Assembly (NCBI GenBank): GCA_965248435.1
Contig: OZ252100.1
Coordinates: 3,328,001-3,392,000, forward strand
Source: Candidatus Latescibacterota bacterium
GTDB taxonomy: Bacteria; Latescibacterota; UBA2968; GCA-2709665
DNA: 64,000 nucleotides
Direction: 5' to 3'
Shown here: in pieces, positions 37,392 to 47,133 of the stretch
Numbering within the stretch: position 1 is the stretch's first letter
How the letters are laid out: the number at the start of each line of letters is the position of its first letter
Program-made: the position numbers and the translations under genes
Notes under the pieces: model-generated
What the model saw: only the letters and a program-made list of their open reading frames with translations
Databases searched by the model: none
Told to the model about the DNA's origin: nothing

Positions 37392-37544
37392 GATTCACCT
37401 ACCGCGGACCTGATGGCTTTGAACGATGCGTTTCGCGAGTTTCAGCCGCTGGAAGGCGGCGAGTTCTACAAATAGCGCCTTTACCCTAACCCCAACATTC
37501 GAATGAAAGCCTTTTTTCCGACCGCAGGAGGCAAGGACTTAGAG

Positions 37545-38900
37545 ATGCGAAACTGGCGATCGATTTTCTGCCGCGGCTTCCGAATCGGGGTCTTCGCCAG
37601 CCTGTTTGGGTTCGCCTTGTCCGCACCGTGCTGCGCGGTAGATCTGGTGGGAGTATACCGCTCGGCGCTGAAGCACGACGCCCAGTTAGAGGGCGCCCGG
37701 TACACGAACCTGGCGTCGAGGGAAGGGCTGCGACAGGCGTTCTCCAGATTTCTACCCACGTTGACCCTGGACGCAGAGACAGGCGGCACCCATCAGAATA
37801 TCCGCAGCACTAACAATGACCTGTTCAGCCTGGGCAAATCTTTTTTCATGACGAGCCGCGTGTCCGTGACCCTGAATCAGCCGATTTACCGCCATTCGAC
37901 GCTGGTAGGCGTCTGGCAGGCTCGTGCCGACGTGAAACGGTCTGACCTGGAGTTGATGCAGGCCGAACAGGACCTGATACTGCGCTCTGCGAGGCTCTAC
38001 TTCTCAGCCCTTGCGGCGAGAGACGAGGTGACTTTCGCCGAAGCGGAACAGGCCTCGCTCGAGCGACATTTCGAGCTGGTCCAGGTACAGAAGGCGCGCG
38101 GTCTGGCGTCGATTATGGATCTCTACGAGGCCCGAGCCCGACTGGCTACCGTAGAGGCGCAAGTGATCGAGGCAGAGGACCTGTGGGACGACGCGATCGA
38201 GGCACTCCGGGAGCTGAACAGCCGCTTGGCCCCCGACCTCCGACCCCTGCGGGTCGAACTGCCGCTTGTGACTCCTCAGCCGTCCGATGTCGACGCGTGG
38301 ATCGAGCGCGCGGTCGAGGGAAACCTGAGACTAAAGGCTCAGGAACAGGCCGTGGAATCTGCCATGCAGGAGATCTCGCTCCAGAAGGCTGGGCGGATTC
38401 CGGCGCTGAATCTGCAAGCCAGGGAGAACCGGGAGAAGACGGGGGGCACACTGTTCGGAGGCGGAAGCGATGTGGAAACCGCAAATTTTATCGTCACGAT
38501 AAGCGTCCCGGTGTTCCAGGGGGGCTTTCTGGGCTCCCGCATCAAAGAGGCGAAGTACGCCCACCAAGCCGCGGTGCAGGAGCTGGAGCGGCAGCGGCGC
38601 GCGCTCAAGCGCCAGGTACGCTCGTCCTTTTTCGGTGTGACCCGGGCGATCAGCCGCGTGGCCGCGCTGGAGCAGGCCGTACGGTCTCAGGGGCTTGCCC
38701 TTGAGGCTCGCCAGGAGGGCTTCCGGTCGGGAATCGTATCCATCGTCGCCGTTCTGGACGCAGAGCGGGATCTGTTCGAAACGCGGCGCGACCACGCACG
38801 CGCACGCTACGAGTACATTCTGAACAGCCTTCTGCTGCGGGACACCGTTGGCCAGTTGAGCGAAGCCGACCTCCTGCAGGTCAATCGGTGGCTTCAGTGA
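37545..38900 (+). CDS. tolC: TolC-family outer membrane channel
   Basis: Signal peptide, DLVGVYRSALKHD, FLPTLTL, LNQPIY, YFSALAA, VPVFQGG, GFRSGIVSIVAVLDAERDLF, ARYEYIL; start 37545 or 37503. Confidence 0.9.
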   Translation: MRNWRSIFCRGFRIGVFASLFGFALSAPCCAVDLVGVYRSALKHDAQLEGARYTNLASREGLRQAFSRFLPTLTLDAETGGTHQNIRSTNNDLFSLGKSFFMTSRVSVTLNQPIYRHSTLVGVWQARADVKRSDLELMQAEQDLILRSARLYFSALAARDEVTFAEAEQASLERHFELVQVQKARGLASIMDLYEARARLATVEAQVIEAEDLWDDAIEALRELNSRLAPDLRPLRVELPLVTPQPSDVDAWIERAVEGNLRLKAQEQAVESAMQEISLQKAGRIPALNLQARENREKTGGTLFGGGSDVETANFIVTISVPVFQGGFLGSRIKEAKYAHQAAVQELERQRRALKRQVRSSFFGVTRAISRVAALEQAVRSQGLALEARQEGFRSGIVSIVAVLDAERDLFETRRDHARARYEYILNSLLLRDTVGQLSEADLLQVNRWLQ

Positions 38901-38913
38901 CGGAGTCAGGAAA

Positions 38914-40902
38914 ATGATCCAGGTTGCCGCGCATCCTCCCACAACGCACGAAGTTCGAGCCGAACGGAGAGACCCGCGCCACGGTCCCCTGGAGAAGCAG
39001 GGTCGGGCGCTCGGCGGGCGGCTGCAGCGCCGCGTACGCTCGTGGCGGATCCTGCCGGAGGGCATCGTGTCGGCGGTCGACGCGCGCGGATTCGAGTATG
39101 CCGAGATGGACACCGAGGCATTACGGGAGGCCGCTCGAGATCTGAGGCTGGTCCTGCGCCGCGACGGCTTCCTGCTTGAGCGTGCGGCTCAGGTATTCGC
39201 CCTGGTTCGCGAGACGGCGGACAGGACGGTGGGATTGCGCCACTTCGACTGCCAGCTGATGGGGGGGTGGGTGCTGCTGAACGGGATGGTCGCGGAGATG
39301 GAGACGGGCGAGGGGAAAACCCTTACGGCGACCCTCCCGGCCGTGACGGCCGCGCTTGCCGGCATCCCCGTTCACGTTGTGACGGTGAACGATTACCTGA
39401 CGGCCCGAGATGCCGAGTGGATGGGCCCCGTCTACGAGACGCTGGGCTTGACGGTTGGGACGGTTGTCCACGGCCAAACACCCGACCAACGGCAGGAGGC
39501 CTACGCGTCCGACATCACCTACGGCACGAACAAAGAACTGGTGTTCGACTACCTTCGAGACCGTCTGGTGCTGCAGCAGAGACCGGAGTCCCTTCGCCTC
39601 CAGGCAGACCGGCTGATGGGAGATATCTCTCGGACTGAACGGCTTGTGCTTCGGGGGCTGCACTACGCGATCGTGGACGAGGCTGACAGTGTGCTGGTCG
39701 ATGAGGCGCGCACGCCGCTGATCATCTCGGGAGGGGCGCAGACAGAGGAGGCCGGCTTCCTGGAAGAGGCGGCCCAGGTCGCCCGCGGGCTGGAGGAGGG
39801 ACGGGACTACCGGCTGGACCTCGAGGAGCGACGCGCAGAACTGACCGAGGCCGGCATGGAGCGCATCCGGGAGCAGACGGAGCGCCTTTCCCCGCTGTGG
39901 GCGGGCACGATACGCAGGGAAGAGACGGTGCGGCAGGCGCTGATGGCGTTTCACCTGTTCAAGCGGGACGTGGACTACCTTGTTCGGGAAGGAAAGGTCG
40001 TGATCGTGGACGAGTTCACAGGCCGTCTGATGCCCGACCGCTCCTGGGAGCGGGGTCTACACCAGCTGATCGAGATCAAGGAAGGGGTAGAAGTGACGCT
40101 CCAACGGGACGTACTGTCGCGGATCAGTTATCAGCGTTTCTTTCGCCGCTACCTGCGGCTGGCGGGAATGACGGGCACGGCTTCAGAGGTAGCTGGTGAG
40201 TTGGGCTCGGTCTATGGGCTGCCTGTAATCCGGATTCCGACCAACCGACCGGTGTGTCGCACGCAACTACCCGATCAGATACACGCCACTTCCGTCGAGA
40301 AGTGGGAAGGGATCGTGGCCAGGGTAGGACAGCTGCACGATGAGGGGCGTCCGTGTTTGATCGGGACCCGGTCTGTGGCGGCGTCTGAACACGTCCACAA
40401 GTTGATGGAAGCGGCCGGGCTGCCACACCAGGTGCTGAACGCCAAGTTCGACAAGGAAGAAGCTGAGATCATCGCCCGTGCCGGGGAACGGGGACGGGTT
40501 ACCGTAGCGACGAACATGGCGGGCCGTGGAACGGACATCAAACTGGGGGCGAAAGTGGCCGAGCTGGGTGGGCTCCACGTGATCCTGACCGAGCGTCACG
40601 AAGCGCGTCGGATCGACCGGCAGCTTCAGGGTCGCAGCGGCCGCCAAGGAGATCCAGGCAGTTCCGAGGCCTTTCTGTCACTCGAGGATCCGCTGGTCGT
40701 GAGCGGAAAGGGAGGACTGCTGAGGTGGATCGCGGAGCGGCTCCTTCCGACTGGAAGCGGCATCTGGAGCTGGTTCGCGCGAGGCGCCGTCCGGCAGGTG
40801 CAGAAGCGGATCGAGCGCCTCCACGCCCGCATGCGCCGGGACCTGCTCAAGCAGGACGAGGTCCTCGGCACGATGTTGTCATTCACAGGTCGTTCGGAGT
40901 AA
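38914..40902 (+). CDS. Secondary short SecA (SecA_DEAD plus helicase C domain, lacks most C-terminal wing/scaffold and the Zn finger)
   Basis: AEMETGEGKT, VHVVTVNDYL, FDYLRD, IVDEADSVLVDEARTPLIISG, GLHQLIEIKE, GMTGTA, ATNMAGRGTDI, RRIDRQLQGRSGRQGDPG; only 662 aa. Confidence 0.92.
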   Translation: MIQVAAHPPTTHEVRAERRDPRHGPLEKQGRALGGRLQRRVRSWRILPEGIVSAVDARGFEYAEMDTEALREAARDLRLVLRRDGFLLERAAQVFALVRETADRTVGLRHFDCQLMGGWVLLNGMVAEMETGEGKTLTATLPAVTAALAGIPVHVVTVNDYLTARDAEWMGPVYETLGLTVGTVVHGQTPDQRQEAYASDITYGTNKELVFDYLRDRLVLQQRPESLRLQADRLMGDISRTERLVLRGLHYAIVDEADSVLVDEARTPLIISGGAQTEEAGFLEEAAQVARGLEEGRDYRLDLEERRAELTEAGMERIREQTERLSPLWAGTIRREETVRQALMAFHLFKRDVDYLVREGKVVIVDEFTGRLMPDRSWERGLHQLIEIKEGVEVTLQRDVLSRISYQRFFRRYLRLAGMTGTASEVAGELGSVYGLPVIRIPTNRPVCRTQLPDQIHATSVEKWEGIVARVGQLHDEGRPCLIGTRSVAASEHVHKLMEAAGLPHQVLNAKFDKEEAEIIARAGERGRVTVATNMAGRGTDIKLGAKVAELGGLHVILTERHEARRIDRQLQGRSGRQGDPGSSEAFLSLEDPLVVSGKGGLLRWIAERLLPTGSGIWSWFARGAVRQVQKRIERLHARMRRDLLKQDEVLGTMLSFTGRSE

Positions 40903-40907
40903 TCACC

Positions 40908-41633
40908 ATGAAACGTTTGGGCTGTATCTTTGCCGTTGGTTTTCTGTCGATGGCCGCGGGACCGGTGGATCCGGGGGTGGGACACGATGGTCTCATCGAA
41001 CCCTACGAAGTGGTTGAGCTGAGCAGTCAGGTCCCCGGCATTCTTGAGGAGGTGACTGTAGAACGGGGTGGAAGTGTGGAGAAGGGTCAGGTTCTTGTGC
41101 GACTCAAATCTGGTCTGGAAAGGGTCGCGGTCGATCGCGCTCGGGCCCAGCTGGAGTTTTCGAAGCGCCGAGCGGAACGGAACAAGGAGCTGTTCCAGAA
41201 GGAGCTCCTCTCTATCCACGAGCAGGACGAGATGGAGACAGAGATTCAGATCGCCAGGCTGCAGCTGAAGGAGGCCGAGGAGCGGCTCGCCTTGCGGACG
41301 ATCCGGAGCCCGATCCGCGGGGTGGTGGTGGACCGAACCGTGTCACCCGGGGAATACGTGGGTGACCGTCCAATGCTGAAGCTCGCCCAGATCGACCCGC
41401 TTAATGTCGAAGTCATTGTTCCCGTGACGCAGTTTGGATCAATTTTGAAGGGTATGACCGCGGAGGTCCTCCCCGAAGCTCCACTAAGCGGCGCCTACAC
41501 GGCTAAGGTGGTGGTCGTTGATCGAGTGATCGATGCAGCAAGCGGCACGTTCGGCGTGCGTTTGGAACTGCCGAACTCATCCTATCTCTTACCCGCAGGC
41601 CTGAAGTGCAAGGTTCGGTTTTTGAGGGATTAG
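40908..41633 (+). CDS. Efflux RND/HlyD-type periplasmic adaptor subunit
   Basis: Signal peptide MKRLGCIFAVGFLSMAA; VELSSQVPGILEEVTVERGGSVEKGQVLV, TIRSPIRGVV, VIDAASGTFGVRLELPN, PAGL. Confidence 0.88.
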   Translation: MKRLGCIFAVGFLSMAAGPVDPGVGHDGLIEPYEVVELSSQVPGILEEVTVERGGSVEKGQVLVRLKSGLERVAVDRARAQLEFSKRRAERNKELFQKELLSIHEQDEMETEIQIARLQLKEAEERLALRTIRSPIRGVVVDRTVSPGEYVGDRPMLKLAQIDPLNVEVIVPVTQFGSILKGMTAEVLPEAPLSGAYTAKVVVVDRVIDAASGTFGVRLELPNSSYLLPAGLKCKVRFLRD

Positions 41634-41712
41634 TGCTGGAAGTTCGCGACCTCCATGGGCCTCGTAAATATCAGAACCTCAATAAGTTATGAGATATTTG
41701 GCCAGATAACTC

Positions 41713-42111
41713 GTGCGGAAGTTTGGAGTGGGCAACAACGAAGAGAAACTCGTTTTCGTCGCGCAAAAGCACGACGCGACGACGCTTCATTACGACTTCC
41801 GGCTGGAAAGGGACGGCGTGTTGAAGAGTTGGGCCGTCCCGAAGGGCGTGCCGACTAAGGAGAGTGTAAAACGGTTGGCCGTGGAAGTGGAGGATCACGA
41901 TGTAGAGTACGGGGACTTCGAAGGGGAAATTGAAGAGGGGGAGTACGGCGCAGGGAAGGTGGAGATCTGGGACAACGGGCGTTATGAAGCGGAGTCGTGG
42001 AAAGAGGACAAGATCATCTTTGCACTCAATGGGAAACGATTCCAGGGACGCTACTGCCTGGTTCGCTTCAAGAGGGCAGGGGAAAAGAACTGGTTGCTGT
42101 TTCGGCTGTGA
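41713..42111 (+). CDS. Standalone LigD 3'-phosphoesterase domain protein
   Basis: FVAQKHDATTLHYDFRLE..GVLKSWAVPKG, KRLAVEVEDH, YGAGKVEIWDNG, NWLL; start uncertain (41713 or 41728). Confidence 0.88.
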   Translation: MRKFGVGNNEEKLVFVAQKHDATTLHYDFRLERDGVLKSWAVPKGVPTKESVKRLAVEVEDHDVEYGDFEGEIEEGEYGAGKVEIWDNGRYEAESWKEDKIIFALNGKRFQGRYCLVRFKRAGEKNWLLFRL

Positions 42112-42257
42112 CGATCTGACCTTTATAGCTTGACGGCTAAGCGGATGGCTTTCCGTTGCGTTTTGAGAATTTGCATCTTATTTTTGGTTGATAGGTTATC
42201 TGGACACGCTTTTGAAATAGAGTGTGTCCGGTTTTTTGTTGTGTCGCTGGGAGGACG

Positions 42258-43373
42258 ATGATCACGACACACACCGATGTCGTTGGAAGCCTGCTCCGTC
42301 CGGAGCGGCTGCTGAATGCTCGGGAAGACCTCGCGGCTGAGAGAATCACGGAAACGGACTTCAAGAAGGTCGAAGACCGCGCCGTCGATCATGCCGTCGC
42401 GATTCAGGAGGCGGCGGGACTTGGGGTGGTGACGGACGGAGAGATGCGACGTCAGTCGTTCCAGAGTCAGATGACCGAGGCGGTCGATGGATTTGGAGAA
42501 TACTCGCTGGATGCCTTCTTGTGGGGAGACTGGAAGGGGGATGATTCGGTCGGGGATCTGCACCTGGAGCGCCCGACCGCGCTCGGCGTCGAGCGGAAGT
42601 TGAGAAGGCGTCGCCACCTGAGTGTCCATGAATTCAATTACTTACGGGATCACACGACACGGATCCCGAAGGTCACCTTGCCGAGCCCGAGCCTGTGGGC
42701 GAATTTCTGGTCGCCCGAGCGATCTACGGAGGCCTACTCTTCACTTGACGAATTCCTTTCAGATGTTGCCATCATCCTGCGGGACGAGGTGACGGATCTG
42801 GTGCGTCTCGGGGCTCGGTACATCCAGCTGGATGCGCCACATTATACGCAGTTGATCGACCCGAAGACGCGGGCCTTTTATGAGGCACAGGGGTGGGACC
42901 TGGACCGCTGGGTGAGCGCCGGGATTGAGCTTGACAACGCGGTGATGGGTGACTTTCCTGGTATAACGTTCGGGTTTCACCTGTGACGAGGCAATCAGGG
43001 CAGCCGGTGGCTGCTCGACGGCGGGTACGAGCCGATTGCGGCCAGGATCTTCCAAGGGGTTCGCGCCCAGCGACTTCTGCTTGAATACGATGATGAGCGA
43101 TCGGGTTCCTTCCAGGCACTGAAGGAGGTCCCCGAGGAGAAGATGGTGGTGCTGGGTCTGGTCTCCTCCAAGACGCCGAGGTTGGAGACGCGAGAGGATC
43201 TTGGCGAACGGATCCGGGAAGCCAGTCAGTTCATCTCCTTGGAACGTCTAGCCCTGAGCACGCAGTGCGGCTTCGCGAGCTCTGTCGTGGGCAATCGAAT
43301 CTCAGAAGAAGACCAGAAGCGGAAGCTGGCGCTCGTCACCGAGACGGCGCGGGATGTCTGGAAAGACGCGTAA
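42258..43373 (+). CDS. Cobalamin-independent methionine synthase II family (MetE C-terminal-like) protein; predicted selenoprotein (Sec at 42984-42986)
   Basis: VVGSLLRP, VVTDGEMRR, YIQLDAP, H-L-[TGA]-R-G-N, LLEYDDERSGSF, VVLGLVSSK, LSTQCGFAS all in one frame; 371 aa with readthrough. Confidence 0.88.
42998..43016 (+). promoter_or_regulatory. Putative bacterial SECIS hairpin
   Basis: GGGCAGCC-GGU-GGCUGCUC 8-bp stem with G-first loop, beginning 11 nt after the UGA. Confidence 0.7.
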
Positions 43374-43410
43374 GACATTCGTCATTTGAACCAATCTTTA
43401 GGAGGAGACC

Positions 43411-44376
43411 ATGCTTGTGGGATTGAGGGTTTCGGGTTTTGTGTTCGCCACAATTATGATGGCCTCGTTTGCCCACGCCCAGAAGGAACGACACTTCGCC
43501 TTTACCTATAATGTAGAGATCACTGATCTACCGGAGTCCGCAAAGAAAGTGGAAGTATGGCTGCCGGTCCCGCCGGAGACACCGGAGCAGAAGATCAAAT
43601 CAGTCACTTTTGATTCACCTGTTGTCGGGAAGACGCATACCGAGGCGAGTTACGGGAATCGGATCTGGCACGCGCGAACGACTCCGCCGGTGAATGGCAC
43701 GTTGAGCATCACCCAACGCATCGACGTCGTTCGAAAAGAACAGAGTTTAGACCGGGATAGAAAACTGGCAGGCACAAACGGGTCTATGAATGAGTTTCTC
43801 AAAGAGAATCGCATGGTACCGCTGACTCCACGATTTCGTAAAATTGCTCTGGAGGAGACGAAGGATTCAGAGGCAGTCGTGGATCAGGCTCGCGCGCTGT
43901 ATGATTATGTGATGGGTCAGATGGCCTACGACAAGTCGGGCAAGGGATGGGGACGTGGGGACGCGAACTACGCCTGCGATATCCGAAAGGGCAACTGTAC
44001 GGACTATCACAGTCTGTTTATTGCACTGGAACGTTCGCTGGAGACGCCCGCCAGGTTCTGGATCGGGTTTCCTCTGCCGGAGGAAAGGGGGAAAGGGACG
44101 GTCGGCGGCTATCACTGCTGGGCTGAGTTCTGGGTACCGGACGCTGGCTGGATGCCTGTCGACATTTCAGAGGCGGACAAGCATCCAGAAAAAACGGAAT
44201 ACTTCTTCGGCAATGTGGACGAGAACCGGATTGTCTTCTCCGTCGGCCGAGACCTGACCCTGGAACCTGCGCAGCAGGGGGAGCCGATCAACTTCTTTGT
44301 TTACCCGTATGTCGAAGTGGACGGAAAGCCCTGGGCGCGTGTCGACACGCGCTTTTCCTATCAGGATCTGGATTAG
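43411..44376 (+). CDS. Exported transglutaminase-like domain protein
   Basis: Signal peptide (ASFAHA); GNCTDYHSLF, YHCWAEFW, GWMPVD Cys-His-Asp triad; AGGAGGAG RBS. Confidence 0.88.
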   Translation: MLVGLRVSGFVFATIMMASFAHAQKERHFAFTYNVEITDLPESAKKVEVWLPVPPETPEQKIKSVTFDSPVVGKTHTEASYGNRIWHARTTPPVNGTLSITQRIDVVRKEQSLDRDRKLAGTNGSMNEFLKENRMVPLTPRFRKIALEETKDSEAVVDQARALYDYVMGQMAYDKSGKGWGRGDANYACDIRKGNCTDYHSLFIALERSLETPARFWIGFPLPEERGKGTVGGYHCWAEFWVPDAGWMPVDISEADKHPEKTEYFFGNVDENRIVFSVGRDLTLEPAQQGEPINFFVYPYVEVDGKPWARVDTRFSYQDLD

Positions 44377-44394
44377 GCAAGAACTGCCAGGAGG

Positions 44395-45690
44395 ATGGCC
44401 GTGGAATCCGCCAAAACACTCGCCGAGTGGGTGAGCGACGCAAGACAGCGGACGATGGATCTGGTGGCCGACCTGACCGACGACCAGCTGATGGGGCCGA
44501 GCCTGGACACCGTCAATCCGCTGCGATGGGAGATCGGGCATATGGCCTGGTTCCAGGAGAAGTGGGTACTGCGGCACGTGGGGAAACAGGCGCCCTACCG
44601 GAAGAACGTGGACGCGCTTTATGATTCGATCGCGATCCCTCACGATGACCGCTGGGACCTGCCGCTCCCGAGCCGGGAAGAAACACTGACCTACATCCGT
44701 GAGGTCCGGGACCAGGTGCTGGAACGGGTTGAGCAGGGTCTGAGTGATAAGGAAGCCTACCACATCCTCTACTCCGTGTTTCACGAAGATATGCACACCG
44801 AGGCGTTTACGTATACCCGGCAAACGCTTGGCTACCCGCCTCCTGAACTGGCTGGTGTGGCTCCAGGCCCATCGGGAGGGGGGCGGCTGGATGGAGATGT
44901 GGAGATTCCTGGAGGAGAGTTTATGCTGGGTGCCGGCCAGGACGAACCGTTCGTGTTCGACAACGAAAAGTGGGCCCATCCGGTTACGCTGAAGCCTTTC
45001 TCGATTGCCCGGGCGCCGGTTACGCAGGCAGAATTCGCTGCGTTCGTCGAGGACAGGGGGTATGACCGGAAGGAGTTGTGGAGAGAGGGAGGTTGGGAGT
45101 GGCGGGAAACGGAAAGGGCGGACCATCCGGTCTACTGGCGAAAGGAGTCAGGCGGCGAGTGGCAGCGCCGTGATTTTGACCGTTGGGTTCCGCTCGAATC
45201 GGATCGACCCGTGATCCACGTCAACTGGTTCGAGGCGGAGGCATATTGCGCGTGGGCAGGTCGACGCCTGCCGACGGAGGCGGAGTGGGAGGCCGCGGCA
45301 GCGTGTGGGCACGACGGAGGAAGCCTATCCAAAAGTAAGCGCCGGTTTCCCTGGGGGGATGAGGGTCCCGAATCGGGGAAGGCCCATCTGGACTGGCGCG
45401 ACATGGGCTGTGCGGAGGTTGGGGCCTATCCAGAAGCGGAAAGTACTTTTGGCTGTCGACAGATGATCGGCAACGTTTGGGAGTGGACGAGCAGTGTATT
45501 TCTGCCTTATCCAGGATTCATTGCGGACCCATACGAGGAGTACTCTGAGCCGTGGTTCGAGACCCGCAAGGTCCTGCGCGGCGGCTCCTGGGCCACACGA
45601 TCCCGCATGCTGCGCAACACCTGGCGAAACTATTTTACGCCGGATAGACGGGATGTGATGGCTGGACTCCGAACGGTCGCAAAGTCGTGA
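44395..45690 (+). CDS. senA: Selenoneine synthase SenA (EgtB-like DinB plus FGE-sulfatase)
   Basis: NPLRWEIGHMAWFQEKW, HEDMHTEAF, FDNEKWAH, RRLPTEAEWE, GNVWEWT, YSEPWF, VLRGGSWAT; stop overlaps senB start. Confidence 0.85.
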   Translation: MAVESAKTLAEWVSDARQRTMDLVADLTDDQLMGPSLDTVNPLRWEIGHMAWFQEKWVLRHVGKQAPYRKNVDALYDSIAIPHDDRWDLPLPSREETLTYIREVRDQVLERVEQGLSDKEAYHILYSVFHEDMHTEAFTYTRQTLGYPPPELAGVAPGPSGGGRLDGDVEIPGGEFMLGAGQDEPFVFDNEKWAHPVTLKPFSIARAPVTQAEFAAFVEDRGYDRKELWREGGWEWRETERADHPVYWRKESGGEWQRRDFDRWVPLESDRPVIHVNWFEAEAYCAWAGRRLPTEAEWEAAAACGHDGGSLSKSKRRFPWGDEGPESGKAHLDWRDMGCAEVGAYPEAESTFGCRQMIGNVWEWTSSVFLPYPGFIADPYEEYSEPWFETRKVLRGGSWATRSRMLRNTWRNYFTPDRRDVMAGLRTVAKS

Positions 45691-46637
45691 GGATTTCCCT
45701 GATCACACCGGCACCGGCCGGCTCGAGGAAGGGAAATCGGGTGACCGCGCAGCGCTGGTCCAAAATCCTTCGTGGACTGGGGCACCGCGTGGACGTTGCT
45801 CAGGAATATGCGGGGAAGCGGTGCGACCTGATGGTGGCGCTCCACGCGCGGCGCAGCCACGCTTCGATCGCTCGGTTTCAGGAGGATCATCCGGACCTCC
45901 CCGTGGTCGTCGCGTTGACGGGGACGGATCTCTACGGAGATATTCACACGGATTCAGACGCTCAGCGGTCTCTGGACCTGGCATCGCGTCTGGTGATGCT
46001 GCAGCCCGAGGGACTTCGGGAGCTCCCGAAGCGCCACCGGCAGAAGGCGCGCGTCATCTATCAGGCGTTTACGTGACCGCAAGGAGACTTTGCCCCCAGG
46101 AAGGGGGTATTCGAGGTCTGTGTACTGGGTCACCTGAGAGAGGTGAAGGATCCGTTTCGCGCTGCTGAGGCAACCCGCCTGCTACCGGCGGAATCGCGGA
46201 TTGAAGTCCTGCAGGTAGGTGGGGCACTCGATGAAGCGAGTGCGGCGAGGGCGAAAGTGGAGGCGGCTGCCAATTCGAGATACCGGTGGCTGGGGGAGGT
46301 TCCGAGGTGGCGCGCCGTGAGGATCCTGGCTCGCAGCAGGTTGCTCGTAATGAGCTCGATTATGGAAGGGGGCGCGAACGCGGTGTCGGAGGCACTGGCG
46401 TGTCGCGTCCCTGTGCTTTCATCTCGAATCTCAGGCTCCATCGGTCTGCTGGGAAAGGATTATCCAGGCTATTTCAAGGTGGGAGATACGCAGGGGCTGG
46501 CCAGGCTTTTGAGAAAGGTGGAGACGGATTCAGACTTCCACAAAGGGCTTAAGCGTCATTGCCGACGTCTGGTCTCCATTGTGAATCCTGCGGACGAAAG
46601 GAGGAGGTGGAGATCGCTGCTCCAGGAACTGGGATAG
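45687..46637 (+). CDS. senB: Selenosugar synthase SenB (TIGR04348-type glycosyltransferase) with in-frame TGA at 46074-46076
   Basis: LITPAPAGSRKGNRVTAQRW, ALHARRS, LTGTDLY, GHLREVKDP, SIMEGGANAVSEA, GLLGKDYPGYF; ORFs 45687-46076 and 46143-46637 share a frame; GTGA overlap with senA. Confidence 0.85.
46085..46119 (+). promoter_or_regulatory. Putative bacterial SECIS hairpin after the senB UGA
   Basis: AGACUUU-GCCCCC-AGGAA-GGGGGU-AUUC-GAGGUCU; loop starts 21 nt after UGA with G at loop position 2. Confidence 0.55.
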
Positions 46638-46662
46638 CGGTTCGACCGGAGTTGTCTCGATT

Positions 46663-47133
46663 ATGTCTTTGAAGGAAGAGACATTCACGTTCTGGGATCC
46701 GCTTGAATTGGTCGACGGGGATCTTCGCCTCGTTCTGGTCGAAAAGCGATTCGGAAATCCTGCCAGGGATATTGTGCCTGCATACAAGTTCGAAATGAGG
46801 AAGATCGACACCTGGGAACCGATCGGGAGGGTCGATCTCCGAATCGGCAATACGGAGCATATCGTGATGTATTCGGGACACCTCGGCTACCGGGTGGAGC
46901 CACTCTACCGGGGTGAGAGATTCGCGGCAAGAAGCTGCGTGCTCCTGTTCGACCTGGCGAGGCGCCACCAAATCGATCCACTCTGGATCACCTGCAATCC
47001 TGAGAATGTCGCATCGCGTCGGACGTGCGAGCTTATTGGAGGTCGTCTCATCGAAATTGTGGCGCTACCGGAGAATACGGATATGTACAGTGAAGGCGAG
47101 CGCTTCAAATGTCGCTATCGCGTCGATGTATGA
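46663..47133 (+). CDS. GNAT-family acetyltransferase
   Basis: IGRVDLRIG, GHLGYRVEPLYRGERFA, ITCNPENVASRRTCELIGG. Confidence 0.85.
   Translation: MSLKEETFTFWDPLELVDGDLRLVLVEKRFGNPARDIVPAYKFEMRKIDTWEPIGRVDLRIGNTEHIVMYSGHLGYRVEPLYRGERFAARSCVLLFDLARRHQIDPLWITCNPENVASRRTCELIGGRLIEIVALPENTDMYSEGERFKCRYRVDV

Follow-up and report, generated by a model that had tools for sequence, protein, structure and literature searches.

A predicted MetE-like selenoprotein family with selenocysteine at a zinc-ligand position, encoded near selenoneine genes in a Latescibacterota genome

Results

A MetE-like gene interrupted by one UGA codon

The window analysed here is a 64,000-nucleotide (nt) stretch of the genome of a Candidatus Latescibacterota bacterium (GenBank assembly GCA_965248435.1, contig OZ252100.1, positions 3,328,001 to 3,392,000), and the gene under study is a frame at 42258-43373 that codes, when its in-frame TGA is read as selenocysteine (Sec, U), for a predicted protein of 371 residues of the single-barrel MetE family ('methionine synthase II'). 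This gene and all the window features described below with a strand lie on the plus strand. A Shine-Dalgarno-like GGGAGG, read from the sequence at 42249-42254, precedes the ATG at 42258, which agrees with the N-termini of homologues (MITxHTDVVGSLLRP). The UGA codon, at 42984-42986, corresponds to residue 243 and is the only recoded codon of the frame, which passes through LLLEYDD and STQCGFAS and stops at a TAA at 43371-43373. An earlier reading of this DNA from its letters alone (hereafter the sequence-only reading) had seen the motif H-L-U-R-G-N in CAC CTG TGA CGA GGC AAT at 42978-42995, within a frame otherwise open to the TAA, and re-reading confirmed this. It had also expected standard gene callers to split the gene; calling with translation table 11 does break it into an open reading frame (ORF) at 42222-42986 and a second one, of 76 residues, at 43143-43373.

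Upstream of the gene, a terminator-like hairpin at 42200-42231 (13 pairs, then TTTTTTG) ends 26 nt before the start codon. It could terminate transcription of the LigD-PE-like gene upstream (41713-42111), or it could act as a leader or attenuator element. A scan of positions 41500-47000 against Rfam (E <= 1) returned zero families, and thus neither a riboswitch for this hairpin nor a curated model of the selenocysteine insertion sequence (SECIS).

A SECIS-type hairpin persists in Sec forms and is relaxed in Cys forms

A SECIS-type hairpin occupies positions 42998-43016, just past the UGA codon. One arm of its 8-bp stem is GGGCAGCC (42998-43005), the loop is GGT (43006-43008), and the opposite arm is GGCTGCTC (43009-43016), or GGCUGCUC when the same positions are written as RNA. 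The stem is made of a 5-bp core, CAGCC/GGCUG, and, in this sequence, three outer pairs. The hairpin begins 11 nt past the TGA and is included in the minimum-free-energy fold, so that the stem with a GGU loop described in the sequence-only reading was borne out on both counts. A distance of 11 nt is the classic spacing of E. coli fdhF. Bacterial SECIS elements are modelled with a G-containing apical loop about 16-37 nt from the UGA; here the apical loop begins 19 nt after it, and would fit.

The fold of this single sequence is not significant (see Discussion), and the case for the hairpin therefore rests on comparison across genomes. We counted stem pairs in 82 aligned Sec-form segments, which gave 79 distinct rows. 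Each of the five core pairs was formed in 77 to 79 of the 79 rows. The position beyond the core was unpaired in 64 of them, and the two outer pairs were formed in 78 and 63, respectively. The outermost core pair, formed between the wobble positions of a Gly codon and a Leu codon, was CG in 72 rows, GC in two, UG in two, AU in one and something else in two.

Homologues with cysteine at the UGA position (Cys forms) served for a matched comparison, with 80 distinct segments on each side. The codon for the loop Arg was CGG in 59, CGT in 20 and AGG in one of the Sec forms, with CGC in none, whereas it was CGC in 59, CGT in 8, CGA in 7 and CGG in 6 of the Cys forms. The Ser codon was AGC in 80/80 Sec but 59/80 Cys forms, and the Leu codon ended in G in 75/80 and 35/80, respectively. 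The Arg, Gly and Asn codons right outside the stem varied freely in both sets alike. The full 5-bp core together with a G[GU]U loop was present in 77 of the 80 Sec forms and in 7 of the 80 Cys forms, with mean hairpin energies of -10.0 and -6.7 kcal/mol. The hairpin is thus kept where the codon is UGA and relaxed where it encodes Cys.

The genome encodes the Sec machinery and uses the standard code

The genome to which the window belongs (G000; 5.67 Mb in two contigs) has selC, selD, selB and selA adjacent on one strand at C1:1062487-1067069. The cluster comprises a tRNA-Sec (selC, C1:1062487-1062580; 74.3 bits, cut-off 47), SelD (C1:1062705-1063625), SelB (C1:1063741-1065624; 370.8 bits) and SelA (C1:1065702-1067069; 568.6 bits). 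The tRNA-Sec and SelB, on whose presence the sequence-only reading had made its claim depend, are therefore there, along with SelA and SelD. The SelD frame carries one in-frame TGA, suggesting that this SelD is itself a Sec form. In five Sec-form genomes drawn from five phyla, SelA scored above cut-off in all five. TGA is also the commonest stop codon in the window, ending 12 of 24 non-overlapping long frames, senA among them, which argues that the genetic code is standard and that TGA has not been reassigned.

Sec and Cys forms are found across many phyla

Within the phylum of the window, an orthologue (E <= 1e-90) was present in 12 of 168 genomes. Three of these carry TGA at the same codon (G000, G050 and G038) and nine have no stop; among the latter, four (G004, G060, G053 and G058) were seen by direct reading to have HLCRGN. 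The Cys-form orthologue of G058 (L028, G058:C1:334161-335187) is spread over two frames, probably owing to a frameshift or because it is a pseudogene.

A degenerate DNA pattern for H-L-TGA-R-G-N-Q-(G/D/E)-S-R-W, which by construction excludes TAA and TAG, was matched by at least 80 genome records from many phyla. Their labels include Poribacteria, Dehalococcoidia, Anaerolineales, Methylomirabilota/NC10, Acidobacteriota, Gemmatimonadales, Binatia, Nitrospinota, Latescibacterota, Tectomicrobia, Desulfobacterales, Planctomycetota, Gammaproteobacteria and Cytophagia, among others. The frame upstream of the TGA is open in all 80 records, over at least 232 codons unless the locus is truncated at its 5' end (seven cases) or, as in L079, has an additional break; the downstream frame is open over 126-139 codons, save for five loci truncated at the 3' end. 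Of 107 Sec loci, 93 have a frame of full length interrupted by a single stop, with 61-71% identity to the window protein. Among 176 genomes of the phylum to which G168 (labelled Ca. Poribacteria) belongs, the orthologue occurs in 23, with TGA in 23/23, a set that overlaps partly with the 80 pattern records (identical rows). In a sample of Acidobacteriota it occurs in 5 of 401 genomes, two with TGA and three with Cys. The comparison of HL*RGN with HLCRGN that had been proposed from the sequence alone thus returned a TGA at the same codon, or Cys, in homologues across many phyla, and the base-call error considered at the same time is contradicted by the records that share the TGA.

The same pattern with TGY in place of TGA was searched in metagenome contigs, and 80 loci were listed of at least 120 found. 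Identity to the window protein is 48-75% for these Cys forms and mostly 57-69%, and by sequence comparison they belong to the same orthogroup as the Sec forms. Thousands of full-length Cys homologues are held in the protein database under the name 'cobalamin-independent methionine synthase II family protein'. On a FastTree phylogeny of 94 Sec, 65 Cys and three outgroup rows, built with the Sec/Cys column masked, the Sec/Cys state changes 14 times by parsimony, and at least three of the changes are forced by well-supported branches. This rules out a single clade of Sec forms and suggests repeated Sec-Cys exchange, as in other Sec/Cys families.

Sec243 aligns with a zinc ligand of MetE

The protein matches Pfam PF01717 (Meth_synt_2, the MetE catalytic domain) over residues 6-341 with E = 7.6e-17 and 62 bits, above the gathering score of 21, in agreement with the family assignment of the sequence-only reading. 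Its best NCBIfam matches are PRK06520 (246 bits, cut-off 313) and PRK06233 (241 bits, cut-off 576), and by NCBI thresholds it is a relative, not a member, of the YxjG-type methionine synthases. The model of full-length MetE, TIGR01371, is matched over model positions 428-602 only, with 45 bits against a cut-off of 930. With 371 residues, as compared to about 750 in full MetE, the protein lacks the N-terminal folate-binding barrel, and it is therefore a 'core' relative of MetE and not a canonical MetE.

Profile alignment (hhalign) matched the protein to E. coli MetE with a probability of 98% over 317 columns. The zinc ligands of E. coli MetE are H641, C643, E665 and C726, and the enzyme binds homocysteine through S433, E484 and D599, as given in the text of Price et al. 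(2021; PMC7857596). In the alignment, H241 corresponds to H641, U243 to C643, E276 to E665 and C337 to C726, while S11, E62 and D192 correspond to S433, E484 and D599. The proposal that Sec243 stands for the zinc-binding Cys of the H-x-C motif is thus upheld at the level of the alignment. In HMMER searches against the PDB, with the sequence or with a profile, the H-x-C/Glu region stayed outside the alignments with full-length MetE; hhalign did align it. The codons of the other three putative ligands lie at 42978-42980 (His241), 43083-43085 (Glu276) and 43266-43268 (Cys337). S11, E62, D192, E276 and C337 are unchanged across 74 distinct Sec forms and 65 Cys forms (139 sequences); H241 and position 243 were preset by the search pattern in these sets, and H241 is invariant in 29/29 rows of the alignment of 29 sequences used for structure prediction.

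The AlphaFold2 (AF2) model made from that alignment has a mean predicted local distance difference test score (pLDDT) of 87.7 and a predicted TM-score (pTM) of 0.90. With Foldseek, the model resembled 1YPX, 3RPD and T. maritima MetE (1T7L and 1XPG among the matches) at query-normalised TM-scores (TMq) of 0.72-0.76, and also fungal and plant MetE, the overall range being 0.65-0.76. The predicted fold is thus a (beta/alpha)8 barrel like that of solved MetE structures. By sequence, the nearest PDB entry is again 1YPX (E = 1.8e-49, or 2.5e-66 with a profile), with hiCRGN aligned over hlURGN.

The gene lies next to senA and senB

Three genes follow the MetE-like gene: a transglutaminase-core-like gene (PF01841; 43411-44376), senA, coding for a predicted selenoneine synthase (44395-45690; NF041186, 519.6 bits against a cut-off of 420, with DinB_2 and FGE-sulfatase domains), and senB, coding for a predicted selenosugar synthase (45687-46637; TIGR04348, 404.6 bits against a cut-off of 300). 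The MetE-like gene is separated by 37 nt from the transglutaminase-like gene, and the latter by 18 nt from senA; the GTG start of senB overlaps the senA stop by 4 nt. These short distances, together with the terminator-like hairpin upstream, suggest that the four genes form one transcription unit. We rejected the transglutaminase-like gene as a conserved part of the unit; by tblastn it was found at 0/107 Sec loci and 0/92 Cys loci (0/199). The sen neighbourhood, and the TGA in senB described below, are points that go beyond the sequence-only reading.

SenC was not found in the sen cluster of this genome; the only SelD above cut-off is the one in the sel cluster, at C1:1062705-1063625, which accounts for the lack of an adjacent senC. 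An EgtD is encoded elsewhere, at C1:3140840-3141742 (367.8 bits, cut-off 290.9). Judging from these genes, the organism appears able to make selenoneine, with the SelD of the sel cluster acting as SenC.

Related arrangements occur in other phyla. At four loci of NC10-type and related genomes (L059, L082, L136 and L129) the order is egtD (PF10017, E about 1e-110), the Sec gene, senA and betaine-type ATP-binding cassette (ABC) transporter genes (ABC_tran, OpuAC). The ABC_tran and OpuAC/permease genes that follow egtD, the MetE-like gene and senA at L059, L129, L136 and L107 may transport hercynine, ergothioneine or selenoneine. The Poribacteria locus L100 has an amidohydrolase-like gene, the Sec gene, a selD-like gene, senB and gpsA, in this order, and the ORFs of L075 agree with these in size and order, the annotation covering its distal 609-residue ORF only. 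The selD-like ORF of L100 (4899-5894), like those of the equivalent Poribacteria loci, starts about 490 nt past the MetE-like stop and matches its profile from model position 12; possibly, the N-terminus of the protein extends upstream across a Sec codon.

Searching the available flanking sequence with tblastn, we found one or more of the genes senA, senB, selD-like and egtD at 39 of 87 non-identical Sec loci and at 3 of 92 Cys loci, the flanks of the Cys loci being shorter (median 4.1 kb as compared to 8 kb). All three Cys loci had egtD, and all are from the window's phylum. For the sen genes alone the counts were 54/107 Sec and 0/92 Cys loci with duplicates kept, and 29/70 and 0/31, respectively, when loci shorter than 6 kb were set aside. 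SenB was found in 31 of 168 genomes of the phylum, and more often in those with the MetE-like orthologue (10/12) than in those without it (21/156). The two orthologue-bearing genomes that lack SenB are G050 (89% complete) and G150 (86% complete), and three Cys-form orthologues (G060, G102 and G104) lie 4.6-5.7 kb from senB.

Further upstream in the window, at 37503-41633, an outer-membrane efflux protein (OEP), a 662-residue SecA-like protein and a HlyD-type membrane-fusion protein are encoded in a row. The SecA-like protein has SecA_DEAD, PP_bind and P-loop domains, and the setting is unusual for a SecA paralogue.

senB also carries an in-frame TGA

The senB gene of the window has an in-frame TGA of its own, at 46074-46076 (VIYQAFT-U-PQGDF). 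Sixteen nt after it lies a candidate SECIS element (46092-46108; G-CCCCC / AGGAA / GGGGG-U). One TGA was seen in 9 of the 31 SenB matches in the phylum, and in eight genomes (G000, G004, G058, G002, G006, G042, G038 and G037) it is at the same codon; in the ninth, G109, its position is different. The aligned residue is Cys in G049, and Val, Lys or Ala in others. A G/C-rich hairpin about 16 nt after the TGA is present in each of the eight SenBs with the shared codon, and in one of these genomes it reads CUCCUC...GAGGAG instead of CCCCC...GGGGG, a compensatory variant. The shared codon, the Cys of one relative and the hairpin suggest that SenB is probably a second unlisted selenoprotein; it is not among the 119 families in Table 1 of the 2026 selenoproteome review (PMC13188914).

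Discussion

Relation to known proteins and pathways

We consider it highly probable, from the comparisons above, that the MetE-like proteins are a selenoprotein family with Sec at a zinc-ligand position. The family is real, widespread and apparently uncatalogued, and tied in many lineages to hercynine and selenoneine genes. Table 1 of the review cited above (PMC13188914), with 119 families and subfamilies, has no PF01717 or MetE-like entry and no catalytic Zn-Sec site. By term search, a MetE-like selenoprotein is likewise unmentioned in the main texts of the Sargasso Sea, Global Ocean Sampling (GOS) and Olavius symbiont papers, and in those of the ISME J 2016 paper, the 2022 review, deep-Sep and SelCysML. 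No selenoprotein model of NCBIfam release 20 matches the protein. Among the papers listed by literature searches, none concerned a Sec-containing MetE or methionine synthase, and those that mention selenoneine along with methionine synthase looked unrelated, judging from titles and the beginnings of abstracts. Comparison with the published selenoproteome lists, as proposed in the sequence-only reading, thus places the family outside the catalogues compared here; supplementary candidate lists, such as those of deep-Sep, GOS or ISME J, may include it.

The single-domain methionine synthases II (Listeria 1YPX; PRK06233, PRK06520), among which the B. subtilis YxjG/YxjH type presumably belongs, resemble the window protein in length (about 370 residues, aligned end to end), in their H-(I/L)-C-R-G-N motif and C-terminal PQCGF, and in fold, 1YPX being the best match. 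The window protein differs from them in having Sec for the Cys of the motif, together with the SECIS hairpin, and in its sen/egtD context, which is not known for that family. With the C-terminal catalytic barrel of E. coli MetE it shares the aligned positions of four zinc ligands and three homocysteine-binding residues. It differs in Sec at the position of C643, in a 10-residue insertion after the motif, which contains the SECIS-coding stretch, and in the missing N-terminal folate-binding barrel, which makes 5-methyl-tetrahydrofolate-polyglutamate an unlikely donor. The core methionine synthases MesA-MesD are also single barrels that keep the zinc and homocysteine residues, and they use non-folate donors; the main text that describes them (PMC7857596) does not mention a Sec form. 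MesD (3RPD) is the second-best fold match of the window protein, although the sequence match is weak (E = 1.6e-10).

In formate dehydrogenase (Mo/W) and [NiFeSe] hydrogenase (Ni), as tabulated in PMC13188914, Sec also replaces a metal-ligating Cys and Cys homologues exist. The metal there is redox-active, whereas the MetE-like enzyme would have Zn2+ as a Lewis acid at a site of alkyl transfer. The published senA-senB-senC cluster (Kayrouz et al., 10.1101/2022.04.13.486033) resembles the present locus in the senA and senB genes downstream and, in other phyla, in the selD-like and egtD neighbours; egtD is co-localised in a subset of the sen clusters in that preprint. The published cluster has three genes, its main text does not mention a MetE-like gene, and here senB has a TGA.

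A proposed selenolate-hardened methyl-cycle enzyme

The explanation that we favour is an intact selenoprotein gene with Sec at the zinc site and a methyl-cycle role near the selenoneine genes; taken as a whole it seems to us very probable, if marginally less so than the selenoprotein assignment by itself. According to this explanation, UGA 42984-42986 would be decoded as Sec by the genome's own SelA, SelB, SelC and SelD, directed by the SECIS hairpin 11 nt downstream, which lies within the codons for Q-G-S-R-W-L-L. By homology, a Zn2+ would be held by His241, Sec243 and Cys337, plus Glu276 in the resting state, and would activate an amino acid resembling homocysteine, at its thiol or selenol, to accept a methyl group from a donor other than folate. 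Our best guess is that the enzyme would restore methionine for the three methylations by EgtD that depend on S-adenosylmethionine (SAM), and that the selenolate ligand would keep the oxidation-prone zinc site of MetE working under the oxidative conditions of antioxidant synthesis. EgtD uses three SAM per hercynine, as stated in the preprint on the sen cluster (10.1101/2022.04.13.486033), and both the zinc-site Cys of MetE and YxjG are reported to be S-thiolated under oxidative stress, leading to methionine starvation (PMC4360819). It is this cost and this sensitivity that make us prefer a dedicated methyl-cycle enzyme hardened by a selenolate. The specific physiological role is nevertheless put forward tentatively, and we would not be surprised if it proved to be another.

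Full-length MetH was found in three of the five genomes tested (G169, G171 and G172) and full-length MetE in none of the five. G000 and G168 have separate MetH-like pieces only and no full-length MetH. A role of the MetE-like enzyme as sole methionine synthase is therefore ruled out in G169, G171 and G172. We also observed that matches to the B12-binding part of MetH in two unrelated genomes carry one in-frame TAG each (G000:C1:4721636-4722328 and G168:C1:6622617-6623273).

Several observations weigh against the explanation just given, or against parts of it. Some concern the hairpin. Taken alone, the 67-nt fold is unexceptional (z = -0.83; 38 of 200 shuffles were as stable). Covariation is thin, with two of the eight pairs varying on both sides (five cells), a level matched by 41 of 500 shuffles; of the covariation check proposed from the sequence alone, the pairing of the core thus stood, in 77-79 of 79 rows, and two-sided covariation was sparse. 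The Fisher p of 4e-31 for core plus loop in Sec and Cys forms is overstated, as are the Mann-Whitney p-values, because many Sec rows are related (about 40 are from Poribacteria). The hairpin also coincides with a conserved protein motif, and the full 5-bp core is present in 31 of 80 Cys forms as well. Other points concern the enzyme. The protein scores under both curated cut-offs, that of the PRK06520 subfamily and that of the PRK06233 equivalog; without a folate-binding barrel, no methyl donor can be named; with a full-length MetH, three of the five genomes have another way to make methionine; and selenium incorporation and zinc binding are predictions from sequence. The remaining points concern the neighbourhood, where the shorter flanks of the Cys loci have to be borne in mind. 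SenA and SenB are both absent from two of five Sec-form genomes, G169 (Dehalococcoidia) and G171 (Acidobacteriota), which rules out a strict dependence of the MetE-like gene on the sen genes, and about half of the Sec loci have no sen or egt gene in their flanks. Hence, the tie to the pathway is not obligate, and the association with sen and egt genes may reflect a clustering of selenium-trait genes.

Alternative explanations

This last possibility is at the core of the alternative that survives best, although we think it unlikely on balance: the protein would be a housekeeping 'methionine synthase II' that has Sec wherever Sec decoding exists, and its adjacency to sen, selD and egtD genes would come from clustering or co-transfer of selenium-trait genes. 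The interleaving of Sec and Cys forms on the tree, with its 14 changes of which at least three are forced, is consistent with this view, as are the thousands of Cys homologues annotated merely as methionine synthase II and the Dehalococcoidia Sec clade, which has no sen gene in its flanks and whose member G169 lacks SenA and SenB altogether. However, egtD, which is no selenium gene, directly flanks the gene in several phyla, and it also flanks Cys forms in the window's phylum, where in addition the three Cys-form orthologues mentioned above lie within 4.6-5.7 kb of senB.

A second alternative also accepts a true selenoprotein but gives Sec243 more to do than bind zinc, as part of a dedicated fourth component of the selenoneine pathway. 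The protein could then be a Se-methyltransferase with selenoneine or an intermediate selenol as its substrate, or a demethylase feeding selenide to SelD/SenC, and the selenolate might take part chemically as a methyl or selenium relay. The position of the gene between egtD and senA, or beside selD-like and senB genes, in many phyla would suit such a role, and so would the co-occurrence with SenB in the phylum (10/12 as compared to 21/156 genomes) and the TGA codons of SenB and SelD in the same genome. Moreover, zinc-dependent relatives in the UroD/MetE superfamily have been proposed to handle methyl-selenium compounds (PMC10418091). Conversely, the positions that in MetE bind homocysteine at its amino and carboxyl groups are invariant, suggesting an ordinary alpha-amino-acid substrate and not a trimethyl-betaine, and Cys forms of the same orthogroup, mostly 57-69% identical, are common in soil metagenomes without sen neighbours. 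The two Sec-form genomes without SenA and SenB, and the main text of the sen discovery preprint, in which no such gene appears, point in the same direction. We regard this alternative as improbable, and clearly more so than the housekeeping one.

It is very improbable that the TGA stems from a nonsense mutation or a sequencing error, or that it separates two genes, so that the locus would be a pseudogene or a split gene: table-11 calling divides the frame and the G058 copy is frameshifted, but the same codon is TGA in 80 records and in 23 genomes of the G168 phylum (partly overlapping sets), loci that are not truncated have 126-139 further codons without a stop, two zinc ligands that do not vary, E276 and C337, are encoded downstream of the TGA, and the first downstream start, at 43143, lies past E276 and yields an ORF of only 76 residues. 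An altered code in which TGA is read as Trp or Gly is the least credible of all, as it has the open frame and nothing else in its favour, whereas TGA ends half of the long frames in the window, including senA, many Sec-form genes of other genomes terminate in TGA, homologues have Cys at the aligned position and the genome has a complete Sec machinery.

What a MetE-like selenoprotein would mean

Returning to the selenolate-hardened methyl-cycle enzyme, the surroundings of the gene allow a broader, and in our view doubtful, extension: that the egtD/sen neighbourhood marks a selenium-gated pathway with two unlisted selenoproteins, the MetE-like protein, with the first natural catalytic Zn-selenolate site, and the SenB of Latescibacterota. 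The MetE-like protein would then be either an oxidation-proof methyl-cycle enzyme for hercynine or a Se-methyltransferase or demethylase acting on the selenols of the selenoneine pathway. If this were true, the UGA codons in the MetE-like gene, senB and selD would tie the expression of the whole pathway to the supply of selenium.

Gene callers split or pseudogenise the gene, and it would thus be missed systematically in the annotation of metagenome-assembled genomes. If the selenoprotein assignment is correct, a widespread family, from at least a dozen phyla, would join a catalogue dominated by thiol-redox proteins. Its Sec would be the first found so far as a ligand of a catalytic zinc, and the enzyme would offer a natural system for the effect of selenium on a Lewis-acid metal site. 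Judging from the conserved TGA of SenB, the Se-glycosyltransferase may itself belong to the selenoproteins, and the link of the MetE-like gene with egtD, senA and senB points to an undescribed accessory step or support function in the biosynthesis of selenoneine and hercynine.

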